A DNA stretch of 64,000 bases from Escherichia coli (GTDB taxonomy: Bacteria; Pseudomonadota; Gammaproteobacteria; Enterobacterales; Enterobacteriaceae). The notes below the pieces were generated by a model. That model saw only the letters and a program-made list of their open reading frames with translations. It was not told the DNA's origin and did no database searches. The translations under genes were made by a program, and so were the position numbers. Below are positions 331 through 50,699 of this stretch, piece by piece (position 1 is the first letter of the stretch; every line of letters starts with the position of its first letter). The stretch lies in NCBI RefSeq assembly GCF_002854065.1, contig NZ_CP024147.1. One strand, written 5' to 3'.

Positions 331-3233
<2,903 letters not shown>

Positions 3234-3426
3234 TCACAACCCGAAGATGTTTCTTGCGACTCATCATCGTGTTGCGAAAATTTGAGAGACTCACGAACAA
3301 CTTTCGTTGTTCAGTGTTTCAATTTTCAGCTTGATCCAGATTTTTAAAGAGCAAATATCTCAAACATCACCCGAAGATGAGTTTTGAGATATTAAGGTCG
3401 GCGACTTTCACTCACAAACCAGCAAG

Positions 3427-3502
3427 TGGCGTCCCCTAGGGGATTCGAACCCCTGTTACCGCCGTGAAAGGGCGGTGTCCTGGGCCTCTAGACGAAGGGG
3501 AC
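3427..3502 (-). tRNA. gltW: tRNA-Glu in the 16S-23S spacer
   Basis: Reverse complement gtccccttcgtctagaggcccaggacaccgccctttcacggcggtaacaggggttcgaatcccctaggggacgcca; position in spacer of the clpB-proximal rrn operon. Confidence 0.95.
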
Positions 3503-3587
3503 GTATCAGTCTGCTTCGCAAGACGCCTTGCTTTTCACTTTCTATCAGACAATCTGTGTGAGCACTGCAAAGAACGCTTCTTTAAGG

Positions 3588-5129
<1,542 letters not shown>

Positions 5130-39084: not shown

Positions 39085-39352
39085 CCCCCATGCCGGAGGC
39101 GACGCTGCGCGTCTTGTCCGGCCTACGAGAGTGTAGGTCGGATAAGGCGTTTACGCCGCATCCGACAATCGGCGCACCCTGCCGGAGGCGATGCTTACGC
39201 GTCTTGTCCGGCCTACGGAAATGTAGATCGGATAAGGCGTTTACGCCGCATCCGACATTCGGCGCATCCATGCCGGAGGCGACGCTGCGCGTCTTGTCCG
39301 GCCTACGAGAGTGTAGGTCGGATAAGGCGTTTACGCCGCATCCTACAATCTG
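39085..39352. repeat. Three tandem REP/BIME units (about 90-bp period)
   Basis: gccggaggcgacgctgcgcgtcttgtccggcctac...taggtcggataaggcgtttacgccgcatccgaca occurs three times with small differences. Confidence 0.85.
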
Positions 39353-44892: not shown

Positions 44893-45237
44893 TTAACTGG
44901 CTTCGCCAAATAAACCATTCAAATAACGTTCAAGCGCAACACGCGAACTAAAGCCATGCGGGATACCGTAATGCTCGTGTCGCTCGCCTGCTAAATAGAG
45001 CGGAAATTGCTGGTAATGATCGCAAGTTTTAATATCGGAAGCGGGTTCAGCCAGTGTCGAACTGCGTTCTTTTAATGTTGGATGAATTACCAGAGCGGTA
45101 CGTCCCATTCGCGCTTCGCGATTAACATAGACATAATTTTCCCCACGGCGGTAACCATACGCTTTCTGGGTTACCACATCGACAGTAAAACCGACTTTTT
45201 CAAGTACGCGCGCCACCTCGTCTGGTCGTAAATACAT
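44893..45237 (-). CDS. ygaC: Uncharacterised protein YgaC
   Basis: 114-aa [50 protein letters not shown]... Confidence 0.85.
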
Positions 45238-45388
45238 ATTTGATCCTCGTTATTATCAACCGCGGGCCTACCTTACCTGATTGCGCATTCACAACGCTTT
45301 CAGAAAAGTCCATAAAGCCGCGATGAACCTCAGTTAAGAAAATTATGGTCTACACTGAAAATTACATCGAATTCTAATGGGGGATCAT

Positions 45389-45718
45389 ATGTTTAACCGA
45401 CCGAACCGCAACGACGTTGATGATGGCGTGCAGGATATCCAGAATGATGTCAATCAATTAGCTGACAGCCTCGAATCTGTATTGAAGTCCTGGGGCAGCA
45501 ACGCCAAAGGGGAAGCTGAAGCCGCACGCAGTAAAGCTCAGGCTTTGCTGAAAGAAACCAGGGCGCGAATGCATGGTCGTACTCGCGTTCAGCAAGCCGC
45601 ACGCGATGCCGTTGGCTGCGCGGATTCTTTTGTTCGTGAAAGACCCTGGTGTAGCGTGGGAACTGCTGCTGCGGTAGGTATTTTTATCGGTGCGTTGTTG
45701 AGCATGCGTAAATCGTAG
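45389..45718 (+). CDS. ygaM: ElaB/YqjD-family ribosome-associated membrane-anchored protein YgaM
   Basis: Start set to MFNRPNRNDVDDGVQDIQNDV; an in-frame ATG 12 nt upstream (45377) is an alternative; C-terminal TM anchor. Confidence 0.8.
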   Translation: MFNRPNRNDVDDGVQDIQNDVNQLADSLESVLKSWGSNAKGEAEAARSKAQALLKETRARMHGRTRVQQAARDAVGCADSFVRERPWCSVGTAAAVGIFIGALLSMRKS

Positions 45719-45867
45719 TGAGACGATGACAAGCAGTAGTCTGACTTCTGAAAAGTACTCAGTGCGTCAACGCCTTGTCCGCCTACAGGCCTGAAAAACA
45801 TAGCGCATCAGGGGATTTTGCCCTGGTCACCAGTCTTATAGGACCCCGAAGCCTGGCTTCGGAGTTA

Positions 45868-47202
45868 TTAATTTAAAGCACTGCGCAATTGCTGTGCTAC
45901 CTGTCGCGCCATACTTTCGCTAACGATATTCGTAAACGAGAGCAATAATCCTCCGTCCTCGCTTGAGCGGATACGCCAGTCGCTAAGTGCCTGTACGGCA
46001 AGACCAGCAGCATTGGCTTTATGCACGAATGTCACGTCATTACCTGCTAGTTTGATCACCATCTGGATACCGCCTTTTTGCGGCACAACCTGAAATCCCT
46101 GCTGCGTAAGTGCCTGCTCAATCCACTGCCGTCGCTGGGCATAATGCTGGCGCATTTTCTTCAGATGCCGCCAGAAATGCCCCTCACGGATGAAATCTGC
46201 CAGTGTGTTCTGCCACAGTACGGGTACAGCACATGGTTCCAGTGACGCCTGCTGCCGGAATTGCGAAATCTGCTCCACCGGCACCACCAGCCACGCACAG
46301 CGCAATGCAGGAAATAGCGCTTTGCTGAATGTTCCGGCATAAATCACCCGCTGCGGCGCGTCGAGACTTTTTAGTGCCGGTAACGGCTTACCGTGATAGC
46401 GAAACTCACTGTCGTAATCATCTTCAATAATCCATGCCTGACTACGCTCTGCCCATTCCAGTATCTGATACCTACGCGCTAAAGAGAGTGCCACACCCAG
46501 CGGGCTTTGGTGTGCCGGAGTAATCAGGGCAAAACGCGCATCAGGATAATTTTGTATTCCGCTTGTGACATCCAGTCCGTTGTCATCAACCGGCACAGGT
46601 AAAATTTCCAGACCGTGGCGAGTGACAATCGGGCGAATCAGCGGAAAGCCGGGATCTTCCATCCACATCCCGTCTCCCGGTTGCGCCAGAGCGTGCAGAA
46701 TTAAAGCCATTGAGGCCGCATAACCGTGAGTGATAAAGACCTGCTCTGGCTGACAATCAATCCCACGTGAAACGCGTAAATAATCAACAATAGCCTCGCG
46801 CAAGGCCGCCTCGCCGCAGACATCACCTAATGCCAAATCAAAACGCGTCTGGGTACGCAGACGGCGGCCCATCACCCGCGCCCACAATTCACGCGGAAAA
46901 AGATCAAGTGCAGGTAGCCCCATCTGAAAAGGCAGCGGCTGCTGACTTTCACCAGCAAAAGCCACGACATCCACAGCAGACTGTTGCGGATGTATCTGCT
47001 CACTGACAAAGGTACCCGCCTGTCCCCGCCTGACCAGCCATCCCTGCGCCACCAGCTCAGCATAAGCATTTTCGACAGTGGATCGAGAGACACCCAGCTC
47101 CTGCGACCAGGTACGGCTCGAGGGTAGCCTTGCGCCAGGTTTCAGTTCTCCTTGCTCGATAGCCGTTTTTAACTGACGGGCGATATCCTGATAACGTGGC
47201 AT
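45868..47202 (-). CDS. MocR/GabR-type regulator (GntR wHTH fused to a fold-type I aminotransferase-like PLP domain)
   Basis: 444-aa ORF; N-terminal MPRYQDIARQLKTAIEQGELKPGARLPSSRTWSQELGVSRSTVENAYAELVAQGWL (GntR HTH) and a putative PLP lysine in YAGTFSKALFPALR. Confidence 0.85.
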   Translation of the reverse strand: MPRYQDIARQLKTAIEQGELKPGARLPSSRTWSQELGVSRSTVENAYAELVAQGWLVRRGQAGTFVSEQIHPQQSAVDVVAFAGESQQPLPFQMGLPALDLFPRELWARVMGRRLRTQTRFDLALGDVCGEAALREAIVDYLRVSRGIDCQPEQVFITHGYAASMALILHALAQPGDGMWMEDPGFPLIRPIVTRHGLEILPVPVDDNGLDVTSGIQNYPDARFALITPAHQSPLGVALSLARRYQILEWAERSQAWIIEDDYDSEFRYHGKPLPALKSLDAPQRVIYAGTFSKALFPALRCAWLVVPVEQISQFRQQASLEPCAVPVLWQNTLADFIREGHFWRHLKKMRQHYAQRRQWIEQALTQQGFQVVPQKGGIQMVIKLAGNDVTFVHKANAAGLAVQALSDWRIRSSEDGGLLLSFTNIVSESMARQVAQQLRSALN

Positions 47203-47289
47203 ATGGTCTGCTTTTTTAGGTAATTTATGGCTCTCTTTAGCAGTCCATTATAGTGCTACATTGCGGGCGTTAATAAGAGGAGAAACTGT

Positions 47290-47721
47290 ATGACTACATT
47301 ACGTCAGCCTTACTACGAACTTAGCCCGGCAGTGTATAACGCACTGGTGCAGGCCAAAACGGCACTGGAAAATAGCACGCTGGATACCACGTTGATGGAG
47401 TTAATTTATTTGCGCGTCTCGCAAATCAACGGCTGCGCATTTTGTCTGGAGATGCACAGCAAAGCATTGCGCAAATCCGGTGTGCCACAACACAAACTGG
47501 ACGCCCTGGCAGGCTGGCGCGTAAGCCATCATTTTGATGAACGCGAGCGAGCGGCGCTGGCATGGGCGGAATCAGTGACCGATATTGCCAGAACCCATGC
47601 GGAAGACGAGGTTTATCAGCCTTTGCTTGAGCATTTCAGCGCAGCAGAAATCAGCGATTTAACGTTTGCCATCGGGCTGATGAATTGTTTTAACCGTCTG
47701 GCCGTTTCCATGCGGATGTAA
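47290..47721 (+). CDS. Carboxymuconolactone decarboxylase / AhpD-like family protein
   Basis: 143-aa ORF with NGCAFCLEMH (CxxC...H) signature; strong AAGAGGAG Shine-Dalgarno; divergent from the MocR gene. Confidence 0.8.
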   Translation: MTTLRQPYYELSPAVYNALVQAKTALENSTLDTTLMELIYLRVSQINGCAFCLEMHSKALRKSGVPQHKLDALAGWRVSHHFDERERAALAWAESVTDIARTHAEDEVYQPLLEHFSAAEISDLTFAIGLMNCFNRLAVSMRM

Positions 47722-47728
47722 TTTGCTG

Positions 47729-47757
47729 TTGCCGGGTATGCGCCCGGCAAAAAAACA
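47729..47757. terminator. GC-rich hairpin after the AhpD-like gene (atypical terminator)
   Basis: ttgccggg-tatgcg-cccggcaa followed by an A-run rather than a T-run on the plus strand. Confidence 0.35.
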
Positions 47758-47929
47758 CAAAATCCCCTACCCCGTTGAGCCATTCACCGGTGGCGTAATC
47801 AATCTAAAATTCCCATATCTTGTGTGGTTGAATCTTTTTTCAACTACATCTAGTATCTCTGTATCAACAGAGAGACAACCCGACGCGTATCATCGCGCCG
47901 TATCTTCATTTTAAACGGAAATACGAATC

Positions 47930-48175
47930 ATGCGCATTACTATTTACACTCGTAACGATTGCGTTCAGTGCCACGCCACCAAACGGGCGATGGAAAACCA
48001 GGGCTTTGATTTTGAAATGATTAATGTCGATCGCGTTCCTGAAGCGGCAGAAGCGTTGCGTGCTCAGGGCTTTCGTCAGTTGCCGGTAGTGATTGCTGGC
48101 GATCTTAGCTGGTCTGGTTTCCGTCCGGACATGATTAACCGTCTGCATCCAGCGCCACACGCGGCCAGTGCATGA
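47930..48175 (+). CDS. nrdH: Glutaredoxin-like protein NrdH
   Basis: 81-aa [25 protein letters not shown]... (CVQC redox motif). Confidence 0.92.
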
Positions 48176-48582
48176 GCCAGCTCGTCTACTTCTCCAGCAG
48201 CTCCGAAAACACGCAGCGTTTTATCGAACGTTTAGGTCTGCCCGCGGTGCGCATCCCGCTCAATGAGCGGGAACGGATTCAGGTAGACGAGCCTTACATC
48301 CTGATCGTGCCCTCTTACGGCGGCGGCGGTACGGCTGGCGCGGTGCCACGACAGGTAATTCGCTTTTTAAACGACGAGCACAACCGGGCGTTGCTTCGCG
48401 GCGTTATTGCTTCGGGTAATCGCAACTTTGGTGAGGCGTATGGCCGCGCTGGAGATGTGATTGCCCGGAAATGCGGCGTGCCGTGGCTGTACCGCTTTGA
48501 ACTCATGGGTACGCAAAGCGATATCGAAAACGTTCGTAAAGGAGTAACCGAATTTTGGCAACGACAACCGCAGAATGCCTGA
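48172..48582 (+). CDS. nrdI: Flavodoxin-like protein NrdI
   Basis: 136-aa ORF; 4-nt overlap with nrdH. Confidence 0.92.
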
Positions 48583-50699
48583 CGCAGGAAACGATGGATT
48601 ACCACGCGCTGAATGCGATGCTTAACCTCTACGATAGCGCAGGTCGCATTCAGTTCGATAAAGACCGCCAGGCCGTTGACGCCTTTATTGCGACGCATGT
48701 GCGTCCGAACAGTGTGACCTTCAGTAGCCAGCAGCAGCGCCTGAACTGGCTGGTCAACGAAGGTTACTATGATGAAAGCGTTCTTAATCGCTACCCTCGC
48801 GACTTTGTCATTACGCTGTTTGCCCACGCACACACCAGCGGTTTTCGTTTCCAGACATTCCTCGGGGCATGGAAGTTTTACACCAGCTATACGTTGAAGA
48901 CATTCGACGGTAAACGTTATCTGGAAGATTTTGCCGATCGAGTCACGATGGTGGCGCTGACGCTGGCACAAGGCGATGAAACACTGGCGACGCAGCTCAC
49001 TGATGAGATGCTGTCAGGACGCTTTCAGCCAGCCACGCCGACATTCCTCAACTGCGGTAAGCAGCAGCGCGGCGAACTGGTTTCCTGTTTTCTGCTGCGT
49101 ATTGAAGACAATATGGAGTCGATTGGCCGGGCGGTAAATTCCGCACTACAACTGTCGAAACGCGGCGGCGGCGTGGCATTTTTGCTGTCGAATCTGCGAG
49201 AAGCGGGCGCGCCAATTAAACGTATTGAAAATCAATCTTCTGGCGTAATTCTGGTGATGAAAATGCTGGAAGACGCATTTTCCTATGCCAACCAACTCGG
49301 CGCTCGTCAGGGGGCTGGTGCAGTCTATTTACATGCTCATCATCCCGATATTCTGCGTTTTCTCGACACGAAACGGGAAAATGCCGACGAAAAAATCCGC
49401 ATTAAAACACTGTCGCTGGGCGTGGTGATCCCGGATATCACTTTCCATCTGGCAAAAGAGAATGCGCAGATGGCGCTGTTTTCGCCTTATGACGTAGAGC
49501 GAGTTTATGGCAAGCCGTTTGCCGATGTGGCCATCAGCCAACACTATGACGAACTGGTTGCCGATGAACGCATTCGCAAAAAATACCTCAACGCCCGTGA
49601 TTTCTTCCAGCGACTGGCAGAAATCCAGTTTGAGTCTGGCTATCCGTACATCATGTATGAAGACACGGTAAACCGTGCTAACCCTATCGCCGGGCGCATA
49701 AATATGAGTAATCTCTGCTCAGAAATTTTGCAGGTTAACAGCGCCTCAGAGTATGACGAGAATCTCGACTATACCCGCACAGGCCATGATATTTCCTGCA
49801 ATTTAGGTTCGTTGAATATTGCGCACACCATGGATTCCCCCGATTTTGCCCGCACGGTAGAGACTGCCGTGCGCGGTTTAACGGCAGTATCAGATATGAG
49901 TCATATCCGCAGCGTGCCGTCCATCGAAGCCGGAAATGCCGCCTCGCACGCCATCGGACTGGGGCAGATGAATTTACACGGCTATCTGGCGCGAGAAGGC
50001 ATCGCTTATGGTTCGCCGGAAGCACTGGATTTCACCAATCTCTATTTCTATGCCATCACCTGGCACGCACTGCGTACCTCGATGTTGCTGGCGCGCGAAC
50101 GCGGTCAAACCTTCGCCGGGTTCAAACAGTCACGCTATGCCAGTGGTGAATATTTTAGCCAATATCTGCAAGGGAACTGGCAGCCGAAAACGGCGAAAGT
50201 TGGCGAACTGTTTACCCGTAGCGGTATTACGTTACCTACCCGTGAGATGTGGGCGCAGCTGCGCGATGACGTGATGCGCTACGGCATTTACAACCAGAAT
50301 CTTCAGGCGGTGCCGCCAACCGGTTCTATCTCTTATATCAACCATGCTACGTCGAGTATTCATCCGATTGTGGCGAAAGTAGAGATACGCAAAGAGGGCA
50401 AAACAGGACGCGTTTACTACCCTGCCCCGTTTATGACTAACGAGAATCTGGCGCTGTATCAGGACGCTTACGAAATTGGCGCAGAAAAGATCATCGACAC
50501 CTACGCGGAAGCGACTCGCCATGTCGATCAGGGGCTGTCGCTGACGCTGTTTTTCCCCGATACCGCCACCACTCGCGATATCAACAAAGCGCAGATTTAC
50601 GCCTGGCGCAAAGGTATCAAAACGCTCTATTACATCCGGCTGCGTCAGATGGCGCTGGAAGGCACTGAAATTGAAGGCTGCGTCTCCTGTGCACTTTAA
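48555..50699 (+). CDS. nrdE: Class Ib ribonucleotide reductase alpha subunit
   Basis: 714-aa ORF; conserved RNR catalytic region including the NLCSEI segment. Confidence 0.95.

Follow-up and report, generated by a model that had tools for sequence, protein, structure and literature searches.

A MocR-type regulator and divergent AhpD-like gene at an ancestral position between ygaM and nrdH, absent from Escherichia coli K-12

The 64,000-nucleotide stretch of Escherichia coli DNA analysed here (the window) carries, between ygaM and nrdH, a gene for a MocR-type transcription factor and, divergent from it, a gene for a small AhpD-like protein of the carboxymuconolactone decarboxylase (CMD) family. 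We consider it likely (probability about 0.7) that the two genes form a self-contained, vertically inherited Enterobacteriaceae module, in which a thiol enzyme is under the control of an operator, and that most E. coli, K-12 included, lost it through a deletion running from stop codon to stop codon. The pair consists of the following elements:

45868..47202, minus strand: open reading frame of 444 aa, MocR-type transcription factor with a GntR winged helix-turn-helix (HTH) at residues 4-66 and a C-terminal fold-type-I aminotransferase-like PLP domain
47277-47282, plus strand: Shine-Dalgarno sequence GAGGAG of the CMD gene, 7 nt 5' of its ATG
47290..47721, plus strand: open reading frame of 143 aa, AhpD-like CMD-family protein with the relay E37-x11-C49-x-x-C52-x3-H56

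The two genes diverge across a gap of 87 bp (47203-47289). An earlier reading of this locus, made from sequence only, had described both frames, their divergence, the 87-bp gap and the strong Shine-Dalgarno sequence, all of which match the sequence, and had correctly taken K-12 to be without both genes: in MG1655 ygaM (b2672) directly precedes nrdH (b2673) with a 247-bp gap, and the K-12 derivative ER1709 likewise has ygaM and nrdH without the pair. The two-gene segment is present in 1,276 of 5,426 complete E. coli genomes (23.5%), the remainder (~76%) having an empty site, and its carriers include O157:H7, O145:H28 and UPEC-type lineages. Salmonella and Klebsiella reportedly carry the pair as well (regulog members STM2803 and KPN_03002; PMC5320631).

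The pairing of a MocR regulator with a COG2128 gene is already known as a predicted regulog, “Spro_3719 - Enterobacteriales”, with target COG2128 and members that include Spro_3719 and the Salmonella, Citrobacter and Klebsiella orthologs STM2803, CKO_04020 and KPN_03002 (Suvorova & Rodionov 2016, Microb Genom, PMC5320631), so the pair is not an unrecognised unit. The 2016 survey, in which COG2128 is a MocR target 53 times, gives neither a function nor an effector for this regulog and omits E. coli from it (PMC5320631); we assume that its E. coli genome was K-12, which is without the pair. Spro_3719 shares the host family of the locus described here, and both it and the related “PA0268” group have a regulator of the same family and a divergent COG2128/AhpD-like target.

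The regulator and its predicted operator

Domain searches with Pfam models matched the regulator to GntR (PF00392, 1.3e-17, residues 4-66) and Aminotran_1_2 (PF00155, 5.4e-27) and the divergent protein to CMD (PF02627, 3.6e-21), which bears out the MocR and CMD-family assignments of the sequence-only reading. The Schiff-base lysine of the regulator is K294 in a TFSK motif, aligned to the FSK lysine of PdxR (Lys309; PMC10450172), and the EDDYD motif is conserved and aligned with the solved relatives PdxR and GabR. Bacillus clausii PdxR (7pq9; 4.6e-65, full length) and GabR (7e-59) were the top solved relatives. Both genes are under purifying selection (dN/dS 0.03-0.10; regulator 0.07-0.10, CMD protein 0.03-0.07), and their catalytic and PLP motifs are intact.

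[quoted passage not shown] Together they make up a predicted 46-bp operator (ATGGTCTG, T-tract, ATGGCTCT, inverted AGTCCAT) that overlaps both -10 elements:

47203..47210, plus strand: operator box 1, ATGGTCTG, adjoining the regulator start codon (CAT, 47200-47202)
47212..47217, plus strand: T6 tract between boxes 1 and 2, conserved in the footprint
47227..47234, plus strand: operator box 2, ATGGCTCT, a direct repeat 24 nt past box 1, at the -35 position of the CMD promoter
47242..47248, plus strand: operator box 3, AGTCCAT, an inverted copy (ATGGACT) with AG.CCAT invariant
47249..47254, plus strand: -10-like TATAGT of the CMD gene, called from its sequence and the conserved block CAT(T/C)ATAGTGCT
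47247..47252, minus strand: perfect TATAAT, the regulator's likely own -10, overlapping box 3 and the CMD -10

The phylogenetic footprint of 21 aligned intergenic regions consists of three invariant boxes and the -10 block amid an otherwise variable spacer; the box 1 core ATGG.CTG is near-invariant, and ATGGC of box 2 is invariant, with the same 24-nt register in distant taxa. Within the 64-kb window the composite pattern occurs only once, and 0 of 100 shuffles reproduced it. Of 79 loci examined, 35 show its 24-nt plus 22-nt register (0 expected), and the register follows gene arrangement: where the CMD gene is adjacent and divergent, 28 of 36 loci have it, and where the CMD gene lies downstream on the same strand, 0 of 11. 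The same architecture recurs in Pseudomonas, Burkholderiales and Sorangium. [quoted passage not shown] By its HTH, its PLP domain and this repeat operator, the regulator is assigned to the MocR subfamily of GntR factors. Local control of the divergent gene, which the sequence-only reading had expected from the habits of MocR regulators, is thus well supported by a deeply conserved predicted three-box operator on overlapping promoters.

A strict promoter scan of the gap passed no consensus sigma-70 promoter, and the promoter assignments consist of the -10 hexamers only. The CMD promoter has no good -35 element, which suggests that it is activator-dependent. Transcription is predicted to start near 47261 on the plus strand and near 47240 on the minus strand. 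If the minus-strand TATAAT is the -10 of the regulator gene, boxes 2 and 1 would lie within the transcribed leader of that gene. By analogy with the PdxR operator, in which an A/T tract sits at the point of maximum curvature and holo-PdxR clamps motifs 1 and 3 across the bend (PMC10450172), the T6 tract is likely an intrinsic-bend element. The predicted operator covers the regulator translation start, the CMD -35 position and both overlapping -10 hexamers. We infer that the regulator, when bound there, would repress its own gene, by analogy with GabR and PdxR, and that a ligand reacting or binding at the PLP site would make it switch box usage or DNA bending and so turn the divergent gene on.

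Two characterised MocR systems resemble this arrangement. B. subtilis GabR is a self-repressor that activates the divergent gabT when its ligand forms an external aldimine with PLP; the likeness lies in a MocR regulator of a divergent gene with repeats overlapping both promoters, and the differences in its two direct repeats, its aminotransferase pathway, its lower similarity (7e-59) and the lack of GABA genes at the present locus. B. clausii PdxR (7pq9; cryo-EM 7zla/7zn5/7zpa/7zth; PMC10450172) shares the conserved PLP lysine and EDDYD motif, a divergent pair with overlapping promoters, and an operator of ~48 bp in which two direct motifs are combined with an inverted one and an A/T tract (PMC10450172); the likeness is one of layout. 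PdxR acts on pdxST (PLP synthase) and responds to PLP itself, whereas the gene targeted by the present regulator encodes an AhpD-like thiol protein.

In more recent RefSeq records the regulator is called pdxR, and it scores 416.8 bits against the NCBIfam equivalog model NF052282 (“PdxR”), above the cut-off of 320. Read literally, the name would make it a genuine PdxR of B6 biosynthesis or salvage, with PLP as sole effector and the AhpD-like gene serving B6 homeostasis. Such a role would agree with PdxR being the closest solved relative and having the same operator architecture, with about one third of MocR groups regulating PLP metabolism and with the peroxiredoxin included in some “PdxW” regulons. 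We nevertheless think it unlikely. The MocR and GabR models follow closely (368.8 and 266.3 bits), as do the two solved structures (223 bits for PdxR vs 203 bits for GabR), which points to a generic MocR match, and the orthologous group (Spro_3719) falls outside the PdxR, PdxW and PdxQ classes of Suvorova & Rodionov (PMC5320631). The AhpD-like gene is the sole conserved, operator-linked neighbour, with no pdxST, pdxK or pdxH nearby, and no PLP synthesis or salvage gene (pdxST, pdxK, pdxU, pdxH/O) was seen as an adjacent target at any enterobacterial locus, a result for neighbouring genes in a 64-kb window. PLP synthesis in E. coli takes the PdxA/PdxJ route, and 76% of E. coli do without the regulator. 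For this ortholog group, the RefSeq name “PdxR, pyridoxine biosynthesis transcription factor” probably reaches too far.

Relation to nrdHIEF

The sequence-only reading had placed the pair in a redox-related regulon next to nrdHIEF. A functional tie of this kind, in which the AhpD-like protein would serve the NrdH/NrdI redox chain of the class Ib ribonucleotide reductase or transcripts of the pair would extend into nrdHIEF during oxidative or iron stress, now looks improbable. It would account for the adjacency to nrdH, conserved across Enterobacteriaceae and Rahnella, and for the thiol-redox proteins on both sides. Outside that clade, however, nrd genes are missing around the regulator/CMD module (none within 4 kb at all such loci), and the module often includes genes for a GNAT acetyltransferase and an FMN-dependent azoreductase-like protein. 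What ties the pair to nrdHIEF is synteny conserved in a single family. K-12 and most other E. coli run nrdHIEF without the pair, the promoter region of nrdH itself is conserved and identical in filled and empty sites from ~47816 onward, and the predicted operator is dedicated to the divergent pair.

Read-through from the CMD gene into nrdH may nonetheless occur, since the hairpin that follows the CMD gene lacks a U-run:

47729..47750, plus strand: stable hairpin 3' of the CMD gene, followed by A7 and no U-run, its left arm surviving in empty sites

The fold energy of this hairpin is -20 kcal/mol (z -3.2). We dropped the label of terminator for it, as an A-run follows and it was absent from the terminator scan. 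An Rfam scan of 45000-48600 returned no RNA family.

Ancestral position and the deletion junction

The pair occupies its ancestral position in the ygaM-nrdH spacer. The order alaE-ygaC-ygaM-regulator-CMD-nrdH-nrdI is kept in E. albertii, Citrobacter, Pseudocitrobacter, Pseudescherichia, Cedecea, Enterobacter, Shimwellia, Pluralibacter and Rahnella (by our count, at least nine other enterobacterial genera plus Rahnella), and the regulator gene is present in E. fergusonii too. In a distant Escherichia lineage, dS of the pair equals that of the flanking core genes. The GC content of the segment is 0.526 against 0.509 for the window, and the ORF listing shows no integrase, IS, tRNA or other mobility gene at the segment. 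Same-site synteny, flank-matched divergence, normal GC and the lack of mobility genes together indicate that the pair is ancestral and was lost in K-12-type E. coli, which carry a clean stop-to-stop deletion. The sequence-only reading, which had called the segment inserted and proposed comparing the ygaM-nrdH interval across genomes, therefore had the direction of the event reversed: the comparison shows a loss by K-12, not a gain by the strain analysed here. The junction is defined by three elements:

45846..45862, plus strand: intrinsic-terminator hairpin of ygaM, common to filled and empty sites, at the left edge of the indel
45869..45874, unstranded: left copy of TAATTT, a 6-bp microhomology overlapping the regulator stop codon
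47719..47724, unstranded: right copy of TAATTT, including the CMD stop codon

The two TAATTT copies lie 1,850 bp apart, which is the size of the indel. We rejected a target-site duplication: the repeat is TAATTT here and TAACTT in the distant Escherichia lineage, but imperfect in UPEC129 (TAGCTT vs TAACTT), as fits microhomology at a deletion. All empty sites share one junction haplotype, the expectation for one old deletion. UPEC129 stands here for the second E. coli allele in place of L020, which was rejected as “the 93% E. coli allele” because its equally diverged flanks assign it to a distant Escherichia lineage.

The data already contradict a horizontally acquired islet inserted into the spacer of some E. 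coli, which we regard as very unlikely. It could be drawn from the presence of the pair in just 23.5% of complete genomes, from the strong difference between the two alleles in the regulator (~90% nucleotide identity) and from the 6-bp direct repeat on both sides. Against it, position and orientation are identical in E. albertii and the eight further genera listed, Rahnella included, with the regulator also in E. fergusonii; divergence equals that of the flanks, GC is unexceptional and no integrase, IS or tRNA is present; and the repeat is imperfect in UPEC129, with one junction haplotype at every empty site. The usual marks of a genomic island are accordingly missing at this segment: it has no mobility genes, normal GC and an imperfect repeat, and the same site is filled in outgroup genera.

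The extra block 45719-45845 is single-copy and lineage-specific. It was rejected as a REP element, since an ungapped search for the REP core matched only 39133-39331 and 55339; at best it could be what is left of a REP-like sequence interrupted by an indel.

The AhpD-like protein and a possible role of the pair

The CMD protein scores 56.1 bits against the NCBIfam model TIGR00778 (“AhpD core domain”; cut-off 27.8), and the CxxC...H signature of the sequence-only reading is present as C49, C52 and H56. With E37, these residues form the AhpD-like relay Glu-x11-Cys-x-x-Cys-x3-His (defined in PMC3141380), and all four are invariant in 20 of 20 Enterobacteriaceae orthologs. Domain models and proton-relay signature thus assign the protein to the AhpD-like branch of the CMD family (PF02627/COG2128). 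It is distinct from canonical AhpD, the partner of AhpC (TIGR00777, only 30.7 bits against a cut-off of 191.95), and no ahpC is adjacent among the ORFs of the window. That it is a true gamma-carboxymuconolactone decarboxylase of aromatic catabolism, as Pfam names the family and RefSeq the product, is hardly credible, given that the CxxC/His/Glu relay marks the AhpD-like branch and is missing from gamma-CMD enzymes (PMC3141380), that the protein passes the AhpD-core cut-off, and that no pca or beta-ketoadipate genes lie nearby among the ORFs of the window.

The structures of Pseudomonas aeruginosa PA0269 (2ijc/2o4d/7xw1) align over the full length of the protein (~1e-30). The two proteins are of one length class (143 vs 145 aa) with an identical Glu/Cys/Cys/His relay, and PA0269 too is paired with a MocR regulator, PA0268, in the published regulog (PMC5320631). 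They differ in the middle relay residue, which is Phe51 (CAFC) here, Tyr50 (CAYC) in PA0269 and His in Mycobacterium tuberculosis AhpD, and the PA0268 regulog has a second target, a COG1917 cupin (PMC5320631), that E. coli is without. PA0269 forms a hexamer, carries the same relay and shows weak, NEM-sensitive and cysteine-dependent H2O2 reduction (PMC3141380); the activity is very weak and may not be physiological. By this likeness the CMD product would be a small, probably hexameric AhpD-like thiol oxidoreductase, in which Cys49/Cys52 and the Glu37/His56 proton relay would reduce a peroxide, disulfide or electrophilic substrate.

Since ~76% of E. coli are without the pair and STM2804, the apparent Salmonella ortholog of the CMD gene, was chosen to carry a neutral marker in mouse competitions (PMC3723669), any role of the pair is conditional. 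One tentative idea is that the regulator, rather than sensing an amino-acid nutrient, might chemically capture a PLP-reactive or redox-active stressor through its PLP aldimine, much as P. aeruginosa MpaR is proposed to sense cyanide via PLP (PMC10790758), and switch on a dedicated detoxifying thiol oxidoreductase; with similar reserve, the azoreductase-like flavoprotein and GNAT protein might join in detoxification in other taxa. If so, the locus would represent a widespread stress circuit with a conserved operator, from Enterobacteriaceae to Myxococcota, overlooked owing to the K-12 deletion.

The literature search found no experimental study of PA0268 or STM2803, none pairing MocR with carboxymuconolactone decarboxylase or with AhpD, and no usable induction data in stress literature mentioning PA0269. 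No experimental work on the pair exists, probably because it is missing from the model strain, and the analysis supplies for it a precise predicted 46-bp operator and promoter layout. Identification of the effector would assign a function to a MocR regulog that ranks among the larger ones still uncharacterised. Practical value is modest, as the pair is real but ordinary and already catalogued. Z3974, a candidate for the gene described here, was among the O157 lysate proteins pulled by a salicylidene acylhydrazide resin (PMC3191033).

Gene pair and protein families

Two divergent genes separated by 87 bp lie between the end of ygaM (45718) and the start of nrdH (47930). The ORF listing and raw sequence bore out the arrangement, including the Shine-Dalgarno sequence, described in the sequence-only reading.

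45868-47202, minus strand: MocR-type regulator, 444 aa
47290-47721, plus strand: AhpD-like protein (CMD gene), 143 aa
7 nt ahead of the CMD ATG, plus strand: Shine-Dalgarno sequence GAGGAG

Domain searches also backed the MocR and CMD-family assignments, by using Pfam (regulator: GntR, 1.3e-17, and Aminotran_1_2, 5.4e-27; CMD protein: CMD/PF02627, 3.6e-21) and NCBIfam (regulator: several MocR-type models, with PdxR scoring highest, 416.8 bits where the cut-off is 320; CMD protein: above the cut-off of the AhpD-core domain model). Two motifs are intact in the regulator, EDDYD and the TFSK that contains the Schiff-base lysine K294; both align to the PLP site of B. clausii PdxR, for which residue roles have been described (PMC10450172). 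The CMD protein keeps E37-x11-C49-x-x-C52-x3-H56, as do 20/20 Enterobacteriaceae orthologs; this E/C/C/H relay is the defining mark of the AhpD-like branch and is missing from true gamma-carboxymuconolactone decarboxylases (PMC3141380). Its closest solved relative (about 1e-30, full length) is P. aeruginosa PA0269, a hexamer with weak, NEM-sensitive H2O2-reducing activity (PMC3141380). Strong purifying selection acts on both genes: in comparisons with E. albertii, Citrobacter and a distant Escherichia lineage, the regulator has a dN/dS of 0.07-0.10 and the CMD gene one of 0.03-0.07.

The pair is real but ordinary and already catalogued: it is annotated in >1,200 complete E. coli genomes, the predicted regulog “Spro_3719 - Enterobacteriales” (target COG2128) and its sister group “PA0268” were published in 2016 (PMC5320631), and an enzyme homolog has a crystal structure. 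Our literature search found no work testing the regulator or naming its inducer. The additions made here are a corrected indel polarity, an explicit operator and promoter map, and caution on the PdxR name.

Site history and distribution

To assess distribution, the ygaM-to-nrdH interval was searched by megablast against 5,426 complete E. coli genomes. The locus was found in 5,421, of which 1,276 (23.5%) carry the pair (filled site) and the remainder a short empty site. In line with the K-12 gene order given in the sequence-only reading, K-12 lacks the pair: in MG1655, ygaM (b2672) and nrdH (b2673) are only 247 bp apart, and the K-12 derivative ER1709 likewise has nrdH directly after ygaM. RefSeq annotates both genes in every carrier genome, the regulator as “PLP-dependent aminotransferase family protein” or, more recently, “MocR-like pyridoxine biosynthesis transcription factor PdxR”, and the CMD gene as “carboxymuconolactone decarboxylase family protein”. 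Public contigs encoding exactly these proteins number in the hundreds to thousands, and the regulator's protein cluster extends to E. albertii and E. fergusonii.

The pair had been read as inserted, and this polarity is reversed by synteny. With the regulator as query, one genome per species and flanks scored by tblastn, the order alaE-ygaC-ygaM-regulator-CMD-nrdH-nrdI was kept in E. albertii, Pseudocitrobacter, “Escherichia sp. ESNIH1”, Pseudescherichia vulneris, Cedecea, several Enterobacter-labelled species, Shimwellia and Pluralibacter, in three Citrobacter species without ygaM, and in Rahnella (regulator identity 47%). For Salmonella, two papers locate the orthologs at this site, namely STM2803, a MocR regulator whose listed target is COG2128 (PMC5320631 supplement), and STM2804, a gene without known function ~5 kb from stpA (PMC3723669). 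Protein identities of the pair drop in parallel with those of flanking core genes, and in the distant Escherichia lineage (L020) synonymous divergence is ~0.3 for the pair and equally for alaE, ygaC, ygaM, nrdH and nrdE. Since the GC content is also unremarkable (0.526 against 0.509 for the window) and the ORF listing shows no mobility gene, we conclude that the pair is ancestral between ygaM and nrdH and was deleted in K-12.

The deleted stretch runs exactly from the regulator stop codon to the CMD stop codon.

45869-45874: TAATTT hexamer at one deletion edge
47719-47724: TAATTT hexamer at the other edge, 1,850 bp away
47729-47750: stable hairpin past the CMD stop codon, with a GC-rich stem of 9 bp and a fold energy of -20 kcal/mol

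A target-site duplication at TAATTT was rejected in favor of microhomology because the hexamers are imperfect in UPEC129, an E. coli with a filled site. What remains in the empty site is the ygaM terminator hairpin at its left edge and, at its right edge, only the left arm of the post-CMD hairpin. One junction haplotype is common to all empty sites examined, and the 60-90 bp to its right (47725-47815, upstream of the nrdH regulatory boxes) are only ~65-75% identical between empty and filled sites, although surrounding genes are 98-100% identical (window against L002, L082 and L084); an O78 empty-site strain has wider flanks 99.4% identical to the window, yet shows the same divergence beside the junction. 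These features point to a single old deletion haplotype spread by recombination.

The sequence-only reading had further tied the pair to nrdHIEF. This link was not supported, since the adjacency is confined to Enterobacteriaceae and Rahnella and K-12 runs nrdHIEF without the pair; beyond these taxa, no nrd gene accompanies a regulator/CMD module within 4 kb. From ~47816 on, filled and empty sites share an identical nrdH promoter region. After the post-CMD hairpin comes A7 where a canonical terminator would have a U-run; the hairpin is thus no canonical terminator for transcription from either side, and CMD transcription may read through into nrdH.

A single-copy 127-bp block (45719-45845) separates the ygaM stop codon from the ygaM terminator hairpin. 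The empty sites of K-12 and O78 lack it, as do the filled sites of UPEC129 and L020. Only 364/5,426 complete E. coli genomes carry it at >=99% identity, and most of these are O157:H7 or O145:H28. The block holds GCGTCAACGCCTTGTCCGCCTACAGG, which is REP-core-like but with one substitution and a 1-base deletion; an ungapped REP search gave no match in the block. Elsewhere, three REP-core copies (AACGCCTTATCCGACCTAC and a variant) spaced 90 bp apart at 39133-39331 (minus strand) look like a BIME-like cluster.

In UPEC129 (L083 3513-5233 against window 45389-47202), ygaM has a dS of 0.37 and the regulator ~90% nucleotide identity with compensating in-frame indels, far above the divergence of the CMD gene (97.4% identical) and the remaining flanks (dS 0.02-0.14). 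The UPEC129 operator matches that of the window at every base. This mosaic suggests that a recombination breakpoint lies in the intergenic region or close to it.

Predicted operator and promoters

Conserved direct or inverted repeats were sought in the 87-bp gap by aligning the divergent intergenic regions of 21 loci. [quoted passage not shown]

47203-47210: predicted operator box 1, ATGGTCTG, adjoining the regulator start codon
Between boxes 1 and 2: T6 tract
47227-47234: predicted operator box 2, ATGGCTCT, 24 nt past box 1
47242-47248: predicted operator box 3, inverted, AGTCCAT
47249-47254, plus strand: TATAGT, in the conserved block
47247-47252, minus strand: perfect TATAAT, in the conserved block

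The composite pattern has a single match in the 64-kb window and appeared in 0/100 shuffles. A slightly relaxed pattern recovered the 46-bp architecture, in 24-nt plus 22-nt register, at 35/79 fetched loci (0 expected), including Hafnia, Budvicia, Pseudomonas, Collimonas, Herminiimonas, Burkholderia, Terasakiispira and Sorangium. The operator pattern was present in 28/36 loci whose adjacent CMD gene is divergent and in 0/11 with the CMD gene downstream on the regulator's strand; L037, L040, L049, L056, L057 and L064 have the latter arrangement and lack the three-box pattern. This arrangement, a direct pair and an inverted third box sharing a TGG core, is the commonest MocR operator type (32% of regulons; PMC5320631). 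The layout is shared with the PdxR operator resolved by cryo-EM, on which holo-PdxR clamps motifs 1 and 3 over an A/T-tract bend (PMC10450172).

A strict promoter scan of the 87-bp gap reported no promoter. The putative CMD promoter has no good -35, and box 2 occupies the expected -35 position, a layout typical of activator-dependent promoters. Boxes 2 and 1 would fall within the regulator's own leader.

Proposed switch, regulator name and effector class

The best-supported reading is that the pair forms a GabR/PdxR-type MocR switch, local and autoregulated, in which the regulator would act on the divergent CMD gene and on its own gene, and the CMD product would be an AhpD-like thiol oxidoreductase. 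The anatomy and conservation of the pair and operator are observed; from homologs we infer DNA binding, the direction in which the regulator acts and the chemistry of the enzyme.

Control of pdx genes is the defining biological feature of PdxR, and none was seen at the regulator locus. The newer RefSeq/PGAP name “pdxR” comes from the regulator passing the cut-off of NF052282, which at 320 bits is low against 480-650 for sibling models, and generic MocR and GabR models score the regulator nearly as high. A 2016 survey sets its group apart from the PLP-metabolism classes (PMC5320631). On these grounds the PGAP name looks over-extended, and the context gives no support for a B6-biosynthesis role.

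In other taxa the target operon also carries a GNAT acetyltransferase and an FMN-dependent NADH-azoreductase-like protein, with divergent GNAT-azoreductase-like-CMD, GNAT-CMD or azoreductase-like-CMD operons among Pseudomonas (L021 and L024, about 2350-3875), Pectobacterium (L023), Azoarcus (L039), L071 and L074. Published regulogs also include cupins, Bcp and DsbD-like proteins (PMC5320631 supplement). Together these partners point loosely to redox or electrophile detoxification over nutrient catabolism, as a lead rather than a result. MpaR, a MocR protein proposed to sense cyanide-PLP (PMC10790758), shows that such regulators need not sense amino acids.

In one report, the z3974 product was among 16 proteins held by a salicylidene acylhydrazide resin from O157 lysate, with Tpx and WrbA, and its signal in Far-Western confirmation was absent or very weak (PMC3191033). 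If Z3974 is the CMD gene, resin retention would mean that the AhpD-like protein is expressed in O157.
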